Below, in pieces: positions 1 through 3,243 of a stretch of 7,501 nucleotides of DNA (its first letter is position 1; every line of letters starts with the position of its first letter). Under the pieces are notes generated by a model. It did not search any database. It was not told the DNA's origin and saw only the letters and a list, made by a program, of their open reading frames with translations. The position numbers and the translations under genes are program-made. Source of the stretch: a virus (taxonomy: Duplodnaviria > Heunggongvirae > Uroviricota > Caudoviricetes); IMG/VR virus record IMGVR_UViG_2609460344_000017. One strand, given 5' to 3'.

Positions 1-396
1 GCTCCCTTTCCGGCACGTCTCATTGCCGTATCACTTCCTCCCGAAAAAGCATTAATCAGTAAAACCCGACTGCTCAGCGAGAATCGTCGAAAAGGACGAG
101 TAGTTCAGGCGGAAACGCTGGAAGCAGCGGGCCATGTGCTATTGCTAACATCATTACCGGAAGATGAATATTCAGCAGAGCAAGTGGCTGATTGTTACCG
201 TCTGCGATGGCAAATTGAACTGGCTTTTAAGCGGCTCAAAAGTTTGCTGCACCTGGATGCTTTGCGTGCAAAGGAACCTGAACTCGCGAAAGCGTGGATA
301 TTTGCTAATCTACTCGCCGCATTTTTAATTGACGACATAATCCAGCCATCGCTGGATTCCCCCCCCAGAAGTGCCGGATCCGAAAAGAAGAACTAA
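1..396 (+). CDS. insL: IS4-family DDE transposase (IS186 InsL-like), C-terminal ~131 codons; 5' end cut by the window edge
   Basis: Frame 1 has no stop from base 1 to TAA at 394-396. The translation carries the IS4-family YREK signature Y-x2-R-x3-E-x6-K (YRLRWQIELAFKRLK). The C-terminus ...PRSAGSEKKN matches what I recall of InsL. Confidence 0.85.
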   Translation, partial: APFPARLIAVSLPPEKALISKTRLLSENRRKGRVVQAETLEAAGHVLLLTSLPEDEYSAEQVADCYRLRWQIELAFKRLKSLLHLDALRAKEPELAKAWIFANLLAAFLIDDIIQPSLDSPPRSAGSEKKN

Positions 397-544
397 CTCG
401 TTGTGGAGAATAACAAAAATGGTCATCTGGAGCTTACAGGTGGCCATTCGTGGGACAGTATCCCTGACAGCCTACAAAACGCAATTGAAGAACGCGAGGC
501 ATCGTCTTAACGAGGCACCGAGGCGTCGCATTCTTCAGATGGTT

Positions 545-567
545 CAACCCTTAAGTTAGCGCTTATG
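545..567. repeat. Terminal inverted repeat of IS186 (right end)
   Basis: Exact 23-mer CAACCCTTAAGTTAGCGCTTATG, 149 bp downstream of the transposase stop. The partner copy would lie outside the window. Confidence 0.7.
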
Positions 568-589: not shown

Positions 590-745
590 TTACTCCTCAG
601 GTTCGTAAGCTGTGAAGACAGCGACCTCCGTCTGGCCGGTTCGGATTCGTACCTCGCAGAGGTCTTTCCTCGTTACCAGTGCCGTCACTATGACGGTTAA
701 ACAGATGACGATCAGGGCGATTAACATCGCCTTTTGCTGCTTCAT
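590..745 (-). CDS. hokD: Hok/Gef family type I toxin (51 aa), HokD/HokC-like
   Basis: ATG at 745-743, stop at 592-590. Translation MKQQKAMLIALIVICLTVIVTALVTRKDLCEVRIRTGQTEVAVFTAYEPEE has a single transmembrane helix and the conserved RKDLCEV...TGQTEVAVF core of Hok/Gef proteins. An AAGGAGAAG ribosome-binding site lies upstream. The paralog assignment is from memory and uncertain; the family call is firm. Confidence 0.88.
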   Translation of the reverse strand: MKQQKAMLIALIVICLTVIVTALVTRKDLCEVRIRTGQTEVAVFTAYEPEE

Positions 746-802
746 AGCCTGCTTCTCCTTGCCTTTCGGCACGTAAGAGGCTAACCTACATGTGCAAAGC
801 AT
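590..802 (-). CDS. mok-like leader reading frame (70 aa) in frame with and ending at the hok stop
   Basis: In-frame ATG at 802-800, 19 codons upstream of the hok start. This matches the way chromosomal mok frames are annotated in E. coli hok loci (recalled, not searched). In this family mok translation is required for hok translation and is the target of sok. Confidence 0.55.
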   Translation of the reverse strand: MLCTCRLASYVPKGKEKQAMKQQKAMLIALIVICLTVIVTALVTRKDLCEVRIRTGQTEVAVFTAYEPEE

Positions 803-848
803 GAAATTGGCCTCAGATTAATGTTAAGCGTCTTGCCGGACGCGTAAT
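794..848 (+). ncRNA. Putative Sok antisense RNA
   Basis: On the strand opposite hok, overlapping the mok start. Candidate sigma70 promoter TTGCCT (759-764), 17-bp spacer, TAACCT (782-787), placing the start near 794. A GC hairpin GCGTC-ttgccg-GACGC lies at 828-843. Position and length are by analogy to sok genes; the 3' end is not well defined. Confidence 0.4.
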
Positions 849-921
849 GTTAACTGGGGCTTTTCTCTATCTGCCTTTTGGTGTTCATGCCTGAGGCAGA
901 TAGCCTCAAGCACCCGCAGTA

Positions 922-950
922 ATTCTAACTATCCAATAGATCAATGCCAA
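922..950 (-). promoter_or_regulatory. Candidate promoter for the hok/mok mRNA
   Basis: On the minus strand: -35 TTGGCA (reverse complement of 945-950), 17-bp spacer, -10 TAGAAT (reverse complement of 922-927). This gives a leader of about 110 nt before the mok start, typical for hok mRNAs. Confidence 0.3.
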
Positions 951-1302
951 CTTCTTTTCCTGCAACATCTCTCATCAGAAGTGACCCAAATTCATCCAAT
1001 CAGCACAAAAGAAACATTTAAAGCGTGAATGCTACCGAACGTTCATTTCAATTACATCGTTTTGATTTTTAACAGTTTTCACCTCAACAAATCAAATGGC
1101 ATTAGCATTCATCATGGAAGAAAGACTGATAAAAATGATCATTTTCAATGACTTATGATCACACCGGGTATTGCCAAGTCATTCCTTTTACGCCAGGATA
1201 CCCACAAGTGAGTAGTCGAGGAGAGTTTGCCAATTTTTGCGATATAAATTTCAATGTCCGAAGAACCATTAATTGTTAATTGATTCTGTATAAGGTATTA
1301 AC

Positions 1303-2400
1303 ATGACAATTTCATATATTCCTATTCTGAAAGCGAAACGTTCTGAGTTATCAGCTTTATCGCAGCTATCCATTGAAAAGAAATCAAAAATTTTGCCATT
1401 ACTCGAAATTGAACCAGTGCCAATTGACCCTGATTCAGGTATTGCCTTAAAGAGTTATAACGAGACTCTTATAGAGTTCGGAAAGAAAGTCTCAAAATCT
1501 TGCTCAGATATGCAAGGTGTTTATATTGATGGATTATTAATTGAAGAGCATTTTATTTCTCCTGAAGATCATTACCCTATAATAAATGCGGTTAATCAAG
1601 TTAGAGATATGGGGATAAGAGTTATTCCTGTCAGTTCACCAACTCGCCCATCTAACTATAAAAGAGCGATTGATGAATTAATGCAGAATGAAATATGCTT
1701 GAGATTAACCACGTTAGATCTGGTTAACCCACAATTAATAACGCATTACATTAATCATCTGGGAATTCCTTTATCAAATATTGATATAATTATTGACTTA
1801 AGAGATGAGTTAACCGAGGATAAAATTAATTCCGGCGAACTATATACTTTGGCAATGGGATTGATAAACAATCTGGCGCACCTCAATGAATACAGAAAAG
1901 TGATTCTTTCTGGGGGTTCATTTCCTACAGATCTCAGTGATATTTCTGTTGGTCTATATTCTCAACCTCGAATCGAGTGGATTTTATGGCAGAGTTTAAT
2001 GAATAGAAAAGAACTTGCCAGAAATGTGATTTATAGTGATTATGGAGTACAGCACCCCGACTTTAATAGGCTTTCGACGCGATTCCCTAGCGTATCTGCC
2101 AGCGTCAGATACTCTGGAGATAATGACTTTTGGGTATTTCGAGGAAGAGTAGCTAATCGCTTTGGTTATGAACAATATGGTAAACATAGTGAGGATATTC
2201 TTGCTCATCGAGAATATTCAGGGCCTACATTCTGTGCGGGAGATAGAGACATAGAATATTATGCAAACGAGTATCAAGCCTACAAAGCCAATCCCTCTGG
2301 TAACTATAAATTTGGTAGCCCAGAGGTATGGCGTAGGATTGGGCAAAACCATCACATAACTAAGGTTGTTGAGCAACTCGCCACTCTTTACGGGCTTTAA
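1303..2400 (+). CDS. Hypothetical 365-aa protein in an AT-rich island; possibly Beta-protein (PF14350) / sce7725-like, unverified
   Basis: ATG at 1303 with AAGG ribosome-binding site 7 nt upstream; uninterrupted 1098-nt ORF. AT-rich codon usage distinct from the flanks. No Walker, HxH, HEPN or other catalytic motif recognised. The N-terminus MTISYIPILKAKRSELSAL reminds me of Beta-family proteins (recollection only). Confidence 0.8.
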   Translation: MTISYIPILKAKRSELSALSQLSIEKKSKILPLLEIEPVPIDPDSGIALKSYNETLIEFGKKVSKSCSDMQGVYIDGLLIEEHFISPEDHYPIINAVNQVRDMGIRVIPVSSPTRPSNYKRAIDELMQNEICLRLTTLDLVNPQLITHYINHLGIPLSNIDIIIDLRDELTEDKINSGELYTLAMGLINNLAHLNEYRKVILSGGSFPTDLSDISVGLYSQPRIEWILWQSLMNRKELARNVIYSDYGVQHPDFNRLSTRFPSVSASVRYSGDNDFWVFRGRVANRFGYEQYGKHSEDILAHREYSGPTFCAGDRDIEYYANEYQAYKANPSGNYKFGSPEVWRRIGQNHHITKVVEQLATLYGL

Positions 2401-2938
2401 GTTTAACTCGAACAGCTTCACGAAGCTCGCCAACATCCATACTATTGGCGAGTTTTGACCATAAGACGCGTTTAGGTTTATTTTTCAAATTCTGTAGCTC
2501 CCCTACATCACTTAATAGGGAAAGCAATTCATCTTTCCAAAGAAGCATTGTTAAGGAAAGTTTGTCCACTTGTGGATTCAACTTGCTAGTTCGAATTGTT
2601 TTTAAATGGATACCTTGCCGTGCACCTTGCGTAACTTGCTTTATCCCCCACCATGATGGAACTATGCTTAAAGCATCATAAAGATGGCAATCAGAGACAA
2701 CCAAAGTTACTTTATCCATCACTGATGAGTAATGTTGCACCTGCGCTGGTAATCTGAGCAAGTTATCACTCTTGCTCTTCAACTCATAACCATGTATAAG
2801 CCCATTGATCACTGCTATATCAGCTCTGCTAGCCCCTAGATTCATCGTAAACTCATCAATGATTAGGGTGTCAGGATCTTTATGATGATCTCTCAGAATC
2901 TTGGCATGCACAGCCTTTCTTACATCAATGTCTCTCAT
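2360..2938 (-). CDS. 192-aa PD-(D/E)xK-type (RecB/restriction-like) nuclease-fold protein; possibly sce7726-like, unverified
   Basis: ATG at 2938-2936, stop at 2362-2360. Translation contains IIDEF ... SRADIAVINGLIHGYELKS, i.e. acidic residue, then hydrophobic-strand Asp, then E-x-K about 12 residues later, the classic PD-(D/E)xK arrangement. The ribosome-binding site is weak. Its 3' end overlaps the 3' end of the 365-aa gene by 41 bp. Confidence 0.75.
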   Translation of the reverse strand: MRDIDVRKAVHAKILRDHHKDPDTLIIDEFTMNLGASRADIAVINGLIHGYELKSKSDNLLRLPAQVQHYSSVMDKVTLVVSDCHLYDALSIVPSWWGIKQVTQGARQGIHLKTIRTSKLNPQVDKLSLTMLLWKDELLSLLSDVGELQNLKNKPKRVLWSKLANSMDVGELREAVRVKLKARKEWRVAQQP

Positions 2939-2970
2939 ACCATAGTTGCGCTTTCATCGACTCTCTCAAG

Positions 2971-2989
2971 CCATGATTCTATATCATGG
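2971..2989. promoter_or_regulatory. Perfect 7-bp inverted repeat CCATGAT-N5-ATCATGG upstream of the 192-aa gene (candidate operator)
   Basis: Exact palindromic arms at 2971-2977 and 2983-2989, 33-51 bp upstream of the start codon at 2938. Confidence 0.3.
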
Positions 2990-3243
2990 TTCGCATGAAT
3001 GCCATTTGATATGACCAGTGGTTAAACATTGCACAGAAAAGTGGATGTGTATTTTAACAAAAGCAATGACGGCTAACCATGTTGGTATGTCGATAAAATG
3101 TTTCAACGTAAGCATTATCTGTTCCGCCCTTTCAGACGGCCTCCTGATGTTCTGAGGGTGCAGAATCCCTCCGGTTAAGGATTTAATAAAAATCGTTTCT
3201 GATTTAAATCTTCAGTATTTAGTTGTTAGTCGGTTTATAGCCT

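Follow-up and report, generated by a model that had tools for sequence, protein, structure and literature searches.

What is the function of a pair of convergent, AT-rich genes carried by a lambdoid prophage, and could the two genes on their own constitute a phage defence system? This question is raised by positions 1303 to 2938 of a 7,501-nucleotide stretch of Caudoviricetes DNA (IMG/VR record IMGVR_UViG_2609460344_000017), the whole of which is referred to here as the window. A preliminary description of the window had proposed that the pair is an undescribed defence or abortive-infection module of foreign composition, located in a prophage between a hok/sok locus and a replication module. 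Open reading frames (ORFs), coding overlap and GC content all agree with that account of the cassette and its location. Our analyses revealed that the pair, a beta-family gene and a cII-like nuclease gene, is the core common to two validated anti-phage systems, gop-beta-cII of the satellite phage P4 and PD-lambda-2. An anti-phage role for the two-gene form is probable, and we place the fuller reading, in which the pair defends by means of a latent DNA nuclease under the control of a beta sensor, at a probability of roughly 0.5.

The two proteins of the cassette

The cassette has the following parts, of which the second gene is read from the opposite strand to the first.
1303-2400, plus strand: beta-family gene, 365 aa; a predicted TIM-barrel protein with a C-terminal helical extension, the proposed sensor/switch (or enzyme)
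2360-2938, minus strand: sce7726/Phage_P4_cII-family gene, 192 aa; the proposed DNA-nuclease effector
Residues ~1-120 of the 192-aa protein: PD-(D/E)xK nuclease domain, followed by a C-terminal helical, SAP-like domain
2360-2400: convergent 41-bp overlap of the two coding regions, in which both C-termini are encoded

The assignment of both proteins to families is close to certain. The 365-aa protein matches Pfam PF14350 Beta_protein over its full length (178.3 bits versus a cutoff of 27, E 3.8e-52; residues 5-356 on profile positions 1-341 of 342), and an identical gene is annotated as 'beta family protein' by the Prokaryotic Genome Annotation Pipeline (PGAP). Its best PADLOC matches are to the PD-Lambda-2_C models (1.8e-41, full length, and 1.7e-38), and the P4-derived 'beta' model of PADLOC matches its N-terminus only (2e-4). 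The 192-aa protein is a full-length member of NCBIfam NF033832 sce7726_fam (191.1 bits versus a cutoff of 70; residues 1-184 on profile positions 1-183 of 184), and is matched by the PADLOC 'cll' model at 2.4e-28. In addition, PF26915, a newer Pfam family named Phage_P4_cII, was found in 120 of 120 homologs of this protein among the matches listed. The earlier suggestion that the pair resembles the Beta_protein/sce7725 and sce7726 families was thus right for Beta_protein and sce7726 and wrong for sce7725 (NCBIfam NF033831), whose profile reached 12.3 bits versus a cutoff of 60 (E 0.1) across the N-terminal 35 residues only and had no match in five other beta proteins, one from Sorangium among them. 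The window pair therefore differs from sce7725/sce7726 pairs in the partner of its nuclease. No published function for sce7725/sce7726, nor a mechanism for Beta_protein/sce7726, was found in the literature, in agreement with the preliminary description.

The 192-aa protein is predicted to be an intact PD-(D/E)xK nuclease, as had been proposed from its sequence. Residues E29, D40, E52 and K54 are invariant in the nuclease alignment, and the structural model, which has a predicted local distance difference test score (pLDDT) of 94.5, adopts a restriction-endonuclease fold (alignments of 44 and 34 homologs were used for modelling the two cassette proteins). Searches by sequence profile identified no relative of this protein with a solved structure, and it shows no sequence-level relation to any solved chain of the MmcB-like/SPO1766 (PDB 3dnx), Can2 or NucS-type PD-(D/E)xK nucleases. 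Its domain partners also differ from those of these nucleases, as it has neither a CARF domain nor a PCNA-binding domain. The family is large, with 5,438 clusters at 50% identity having E <= 1e-3 and 1,274 having E <= 1e-30.

The beta protein is predicted to be a TIM barrel (pLDDT 93.1, predicted template-modelling score 0.92). Conserved acidic residues lie at the strand C-termini (E35, D76, D165, D246) with conserved basic residues nearby (R115, R134, R223, R240, R269, R344, H351), and these acidic and basic residues of the catalytic face are kept even in P4 beta. The protein had been described as lacking any recognisable enzymatic motif, which holds in that no named motif is present, but overlooks the confident barrel with its conserved acidic residues and invariant Arg and His residues. 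Because the modelled pocket is charged and conserved, it suggests that beta binds or processes an anionic ligand. A specific enzyme assignment by fold search was rejected, as only generic TIM barrels were recovered; the matches include DpdA, TGT and Cap10, which were indistinguishable from the generic TIM-barrel background. At the sequence level no relation of beta to TGT or DpdA was found, and profile searches identified no relative of Beta_protein with a solved structure.

Pairing of the two genes and their validated relatives

A nuclease-anchored scan using one genome per species identified 450 species with a homolog of the nuclease, and the best 80 loci were analysed. A beta homolog was immediately convergent in 77 of these 80 loci, and 75 of the 77 pairs overlap tail to tail (median 53 bp, range -39 to 158); at least two of the three unpaired loci are contig ends. 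The 80 loci span Proteobacteria, Myxococcota, Acidobacteriota, Firmicutes, Chloroflexota, Actinomycetota, Melainabacteria and the Candidate Phyla Radiation (CPR). Among viral contigs examined from the side of beta, ~54 of 59 loci have a convergent overlapping nuclease, with overlaps of 20-86 bp. Since the nuclease-anchored and beta-anchored scans agree, the pairing is essentially obligate from both sides.

One of the two validated systems that contain this pair is gop-beta-cII (named Rst_gop_beta_cll in DefenseFinder and PADLOC), which gives E. coli protection from lambda and P1 (Rousset et al. 2022, PMC9122126), and through which the phage accessory gene orf184 triggers cell death (bioRxiv 10.1101/2023.04.06.535777). 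In P4 the genes are arranged gop (+), beta (+) and cII (-), so that beta and cII lie tail to tail as in the window, and in both cases the carrier is a mobile phage-type element. The two cassette proteins have 23% (beta, E 1e-8) and 28% (cII, E 2e-17) identity with their P4 counterparts, the PD-(D/E)xK catalytic residues are common to both nucleases, and P4 cII passes the sce7726_fam cutoff and carries the PGAP name 'sce7726 family'. The two loci also differ. P4 has gop directly upstream of beta, whereas no Gop homolog was found in the window (tblastn with P4 Gop, best E 0.5), and a candidate gop remnant 5' of beta was rejected as tblastn noise. P4 cII has an extra C-terminal tail of ~80 aa, the P4 beta/cII junction is a 27-bp gap with a bidirectional terminator rather than a 41-bp coding overlap, and the P4 system occupies a P4 satellite hotspot rather than a lambdoid prophage. 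As a separate observation, P4 Gop (locus L002, 247-648) has a match to NCBIfam TIGR04402, 'mobilome CxxCx(11)CxxC protein', that is probably not meaningful (E 7e-4, 19.8 bits versus a cutoff of 70).

The other validated system, PD-lambda-2, is abortive and was described with three genes (Vassallo et al. 2022, PMC9519451). Its component A is HigB-like, and B is an Xre-peptidase that is toxic alone and neutralised by A; component C, 'related to a P4 phage antitoxin', is needed for defence and dispensable for toxin neutralisation (PMC9519451). The window has the beta-like component C and lacks A (HigB-like or DUF6932) and B: its ORF list contains neither a HigB nor an Xre-peptidase gene, and neither of the two cassette proteins has a PADLOC A or B match. 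Conversely, the window pair includes a nuclease, which the published definition of PD-lambda-2 does not. PADLOC-confirmed PD-Lambda-2 A and B genes were identified 5' of beta, with the nuclease present too, in 12 of the 80 loci (L020, L037, L041, L043, L047, L057, L058, L073, L075, L076, L079, L082). Four loci picked by similarity to the Xre-peptidase alone (L086-L089) all have the Xre-peptidase, Beta_protein and a convergent Phage_P4_cII gene; their first gene encodes DUF6932 in three, and none was called in the fourth. PD-lambda-2-type loci thus consistently end in a convergent, overlapping Phage_P4_cII/sce7726 gene that lies outside the three-gene definition.

All-against-all clustering of the flanking ORFs of the 80 loci identified no conserved third gene beyond PD-lambda-2 A and B in the 12 loci and lineage-specific neighbours. 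A comparison by position found no consistent small co-oriented ORF, and close enterobacterial relatives have no co-oriented upstream gene. In most loci the module consists of the two genes alone, in a mobile-element or defence setting. Beta and cII are therefore the invariant core, to which Gop, HigB/DUF6932 and the Xre-peptidase are lineage-specific additions, and the window represents the commonest, minimal form of the module. The claim that the pair is undescribed could not be upheld, as PGAP names both genes, they are homologous to beta and cII of the validated P4 system, and beta matches PD-lambda-2 C. With relatives already catalogued as defence systems, this is not a new kind of system.

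The genomic surroundings bear on whether the pair has a role in defence at all. Neighbours in ~42 diverse loci are heterogeneous and include integrases, resolvases, and phage and conjugation genes; defence neighbours in these loci are BrxL, type I and III restriction-modification (R-M) genes, KwaA/B (Kiwa), MzaA (Mza), dCTPase/dGTPase, DitA and a DRT reverse transcriptase. It is conceivable that the pair has instead a role in the phage life cycle as an accessory of lysogeny or replication, takes part in DNA repair in the manner of MmcB, or is a selfish passenger without a host phenotype. The historical name cII is in keeping with such a function, as is the label 'DNA repair protein MmcB-like' that one database source attaches to a homolog of the nuclease, and defence by the two-gene form is something that we infer. 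The P4 genes are also said to have been first described, in Ghisotti's work of 1990, as non-essential, with a plaque-morphology or temperature phenotype. Nevertheless, we consider such a function unlikely, as the pair occurs in two different slots of lambdoid prophages, in P4 satellites, in Tn7-like and conjugative elements and in chromosomal islands, is present in phyla without related phages, often adjoins known defence genes, and has two relatives shown to protect against phage.

Proposed division of roles between beta and the nuclease

How the two proteins might divide the work can be approached through loci in which beta has been destroyed naturally. In the swine isolate E. coli PEC240 (L094, NZ_CM168014.1, 3326900-3329309) an IS1 element interrupts beta at approximately codon 204, and the nuclease, WP_001204666.1, has the same accession as that of intact loci. 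In the Acinetobacter plasmid pAC1530 (L155/L156, NZ_CP045561.1, 67500-83000) and its relatives, Tn125, the NDM-1 composite transposon (ISAba125-blaNDM-1-ble...ISAba125), lies within the Beta_protein gene of a PD-lambda-2-type locus. The insertion in pAC1530 cuts beta into 66-aa and 300-aa pieces and leaves intact an ImmA/IrrE gene on one side and the convergent sce7726 gene on the other; a 2020 preprint on pAC1530-type plasmids drew both flanking genes, and the disrupted defence locus was not recognised. Another locus (L126) has a rearranged beta and an intact nuclease, and two orphan or beta-degraded loci (L011, L061) have kept the catalytic tetrad. Many short-read assemblies (L090-L093, L132) break at beta codon 151, where contigs start or end, which makes this codon a probable second recurrent insertion site for insertion sequence (IS) elements in E. 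coli beta. A truncated beta (P0155) was rejected as a proven natural knockout, as its end coincides with contig ends and an IS insertion there is probable at most, and a beta frameshift (L074) that may be an assembly error was left out of the count.

The nuclease is therefore tolerated without beta at native expression, which argues both against beta being the essential antitoxin of a constitutively active nuclease and against an R-M-type relation between the two. The first of these possibilities is a classical type II toxin-antitoxin (TA), or addiction, pair that gives the prophage stability and may, once beta runs low, provide defence by abortive infection. It would accord with the TA-like character of the relatives (Gop is toxic without beta, according to the summary of Ghisotti 1990 given in PMC9122126, and PD-lambda-2 is counted among TA-like abortive infection systems in PMC9519451), with the two-gene size and mobile-element location of the pair and the adjoining hok/sok and RelBE/ParE-type TA loci, and with a toxin:antitoxin ratio that convergent, mutually antisense genes could set. 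In spite of these parallels a TA pair appears improbable, as the isolates with beta destroyed and the nuclease intact are viable, subject to the caveat of expression levels; PD-lambda-2 C is not needed to neutralise toxicity; and beta, a 365-aa TIM barrel whose catalytic face is conserved, is unlike the usual antitoxin, which is small and labile. The second possibility, in which beta, acting like the TIM-barrel transglycosylase DpdA, modifies host and prophage DNA by base exchange and leaves the nuclease to cut incoming DNA that lacks the modification, is very improbable. This is because loss of the modifier with the endonuclease intact should be lethal, yet such genotypes exist; the likeness of beta to TGT and DpdA is confined to the generic barrel; and the relatives act as abortive-infection or cell-death systems rather than by restriction.

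Rates of divergence provide a second line of evidence. In every one of 100 loci compared, beta is the less conserved of the two proteins (mean identity 36%, versus 48% for the nuclease), although this comparison rests on phylogenetically non-independent loci and its nominal p-value should not be over-read. At one step in the comparison the nuclease holds at 58-60% as beta goes from 48% down to 29%. Between locus L010 and loci L012-L019, the nuclease is still 53-60% identical to that of the window, whereas the identity of beta drops from 48% to 24-32% and the overlap is reduced to 11 bp, a pattern suggestive of beta variants being swapped as modules while the nuclease partner remains stable. 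Faster change in beta than in the nuclease is what one would predict for a beta that confers specificity or sensing and a nuclease that serves as a conserved effector. The arrangement put forward in the preliminary description, a putative large sensor or scaffold paired with a small nuclease, fits these comparative data.

The reading that we prefer is that the 192-aa protein would be a metal-dependent PD-(D/E)xK DNA nuclease with a small C-terminal DNA-binding domain, a conserved effector that is latent in uninfected cells. The TIM-barrel beta protein would be a fast-evolving sensor or switch whose charged catalytic-face pocket binds or processes a phage-derived cue, and beta, once cued, would license the nuclease. 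In the three- and four-gene relatives beta would act on the extra toxin as well. The outcome would be superinfection exclusion or abortive infection, shielding the lysogen population. Convergence, the 3' overlap and the lack of an intrinsic terminator between the genes would lead to mutually antisense transcription, which probably fixes the ratio of expression of the two genes. Within this proposal, licensing of the nuclease and antisense coupling are the least certain points.

The following features bear on the proposed coupling.
916-1302, plus strand: non-coding leader 5' of beta, 35% GC
2421-2460, plus strand: hairpin of 13 bp followed by UUUU, 20-60 nt past the beta stop codon and within the nuclease coding region
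2939-3243, minus strand: region upstream of the nuclease gene, with a weak sigma-70-like site, ATGGCA-18-TAGAAT, from 3005 to 2976

The leader contains ORFs of 40-43 aa only, and PGAP calls no gene in it. The sigma-70-like site upstream of the nuclease has 9 of 12 matches, and shuffled sequences contain at least as many such sites as the region does. The hairpin has a perfect 13-bp stem (AAGCTCGCCAA...TTGGCGAGTTT) followed by T residues in the 3' coding part of the nuclease gene, and the 141-nt segment around it (2330-2470) folds at z -2.98 relative to shuffles; the beta transcript may end at this hairpin, inside the nuclease gene. Across 92 non-redundant loci, terminator-like hairpins were not enriched after either stop codon, and the hairpin of the window is not conserved elsewhere. 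Given that the coding regions overlap in loci from different phyla and that neither stop codon is followed by an excess of intrinsic terminators, the beta and nuclease mRNAs are expected to be mutually antisense at their 3' ends, from which we infer antisense coupling of their expression. In P4, a terminator mutation described by Ghisotti in 1990 reportedly gave a temperature-sensitive phenotype that was attributed to reduced beta expression; this would be a direct precedent for cII transcription interfering with beta.

Possibly, the roles of the two proteins are the reverse of those that we propose, beta being the executing enzyme (e.g., a phosphoesterase, or a nucleotide- or nucleic-acid-modifying enzyme) and the cII-like protein a DNA-sensing or regulatory partner that recognises phage DNA ends or intermediates by means of its nuclease fold. 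The invariance of the acidic and basic catalytic-face residues of beta even in P4 is consistent with such a reversal, and its TIM-barrel matches DpdA, TGT and Cap10 act on DNA, tRNA or proteins in other defence systems. No locus with an intact beta and a broken nuclease was seen, and beta is repeatedly broken; this asymmetry carries no statistical weight, given the 2:1 ratio of gene lengths and the ~4 unbiased events. The requirement for PD-lambda-2 C in defence is also relevant, as the published clone may have had no intact cII-like gene. The clone (ECOR42, QOYB01000002) stops at 228989, 396 bp past gene C (PMC9519451), and a convergent gene of ~580 bp, if present at that location, would lose its promoter and catalytic N-terminus. 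No E. coli copy of this locus was recovered from lists of homologs or by tblastn against plasmids. Reversed roles would be favoured if PD-lambda-2 really worked without its nuclease. On balance we give this arrangement a small chance only.

Several points weigh against the proposal of a latent nuclease licensed by a beta sensor, in addition to the non-independence of the loci used for the comparison of divergence. To our knowledge, PADLOC has no system definition that is satisfied by the beta/cII pair alone. The viability of beta-null isolates could reflect silencing of AT-rich DNA by H-NS or undetected changes that inactivate expression. A scan for promoter consensus sequences did no better than shuffles, the leader included, and no promoter or terminator was identified with confidence. 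If a cII-like gene was truncated in the PD-lambda-2 clone, beta would be able to bring about defence with no help from the nuclease. Both validated relatives have a toxic gene in addition, Gop or the Xre-peptidase, that is absent from the window (PMC9122126, PMC9519451). Finally, P4 beta is described as an antidote of Gop, that is, as neutralising rather than activating, in the account of Ghisotti 1990 relayed by PMC9122126.

Prophage setting and significance

The surroundings of the cassette in the window are as follows.
590-745, minus strand: hok coding sequence; 51-aa Hok identical to WP_000813254.1, annotated hokD
740-915, minus strand: full-length sok RNA (Rfam RF01794, 119.8 bits)
960-3160, approximate extent: replaceable cargo block (moron) holding the cassette, from the strain C8 slot comparison and GC contrast

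A complete hokD-type hok/sok locus (590-915, minus strand) lies to the left of the cassette; hok-homologous segments are common in E. coli (4735 of 5426 genomes, plasmids included), and RelBE/ParE-type TA loci are also adjacent. To the right are two small hypothetical genes, DUF977, an HTH_36 replication-type protein, YdaT/YdaS-like proteins and a cI-like repressor, and this flank is the early, immunity and replication region of a Rac/Qin-type lambdoid prophage. The GC content is 37.2% in the beta ORF, 40.9% in the nuclease ORF and 38.3% across the block at ~960-3160, versus 49.3 and 48.1% in its left and right flanks, respectively. In strain C8 both flanks are present at 98% identity and eight small nin-type genes fill the slot instead; the slot is therefore variable and the cassette is cargo that can be replaced.

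Prophages of E. coli of the Shiga toxin-producing type match the 2.4-kb core at 100% identity; other E. coli carry the cassette too, and it is present in 93 of 5426 complete E. coli genomes, chromosomal every time and patchy in distribution. A second E. coli lineage of the bare pair is located between the Rz lysis gene and the terminase gene Nu1 of lambdoid prophages (L083-L085, e.g., GCA_023722765.1 JAKYQU010000047.1), with a 53%-identical nuclease of 206 aa, a beta of 355 aa and an overlap of 59 bp. At the left end of the window (1-566), an ORF at 136-396 (plus strand) codes for the C-terminal portion of a transposase of the IS4 family (IS186/IS421-like) and stops a short way to the left of hok. 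Only from ~567 onward is the window homologous to the reference prophage NZ_CP027355, indicating that in the strain of the window an IS element abuts hok/sok, and this element is not at that position in the best-matching genomes.

The cassette is carried by prophages of O26, O111, O121 and O103-type pathogenic E. coli, in which prophage-encoded exclusion shapes which Shiga toxin (Stx) phages can be acquired. As far as we know, defence finders call the two validated systems only with gop or with PD-lambda-2 A and B, and the bare pair is not called. The conserved beta/cII core, the fourth gene of PD-lambda-2-type loci, the conserved convergent overlap, the predicted TIM barrel of beta with its pocket, and the viable beta-null genotypes are apparently unpublished. 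A more far-reaching proposal, which we regard as doubtful when all its parts are taken jointly, is that the two genes beta and cII make up an immune module that is both ancient and autonomous (~5,400 nuclease clusters at 50% identity, from Enterobacteria to CPR). The TIM barrel would represent a hitherto unrecognised class of phage-sensing protein or signalling enzyme and would license a dedicated PD-(D/E)xK nuclease; the obligate 3' overlap would be an RNA-level expression switch, gop-beta-cII and PD-lambda-2 would have been derived by adding toxins, and the three-gene definition of PD-lambda-2 would have missed a fourth gene.

The gop-beta-cII and PD-lambda-2 systems are currently treated as unrelated TA-like curiosities without a mechanism, and the window shows their common part in its simplest natural form. 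The comparison of loci suggests that the beta/cII pair, and not the toxins, is the conserved unit. If the bare pair defends, PD-lambda-2 would need to be re-examined with its neighbouring nuclease included, and a widespread family would be added to the catalogues of defence systems. It would also provide a minimal system for determining what the Beta_protein TIM barrel senses or catalyses and how the nuclease is controlled.

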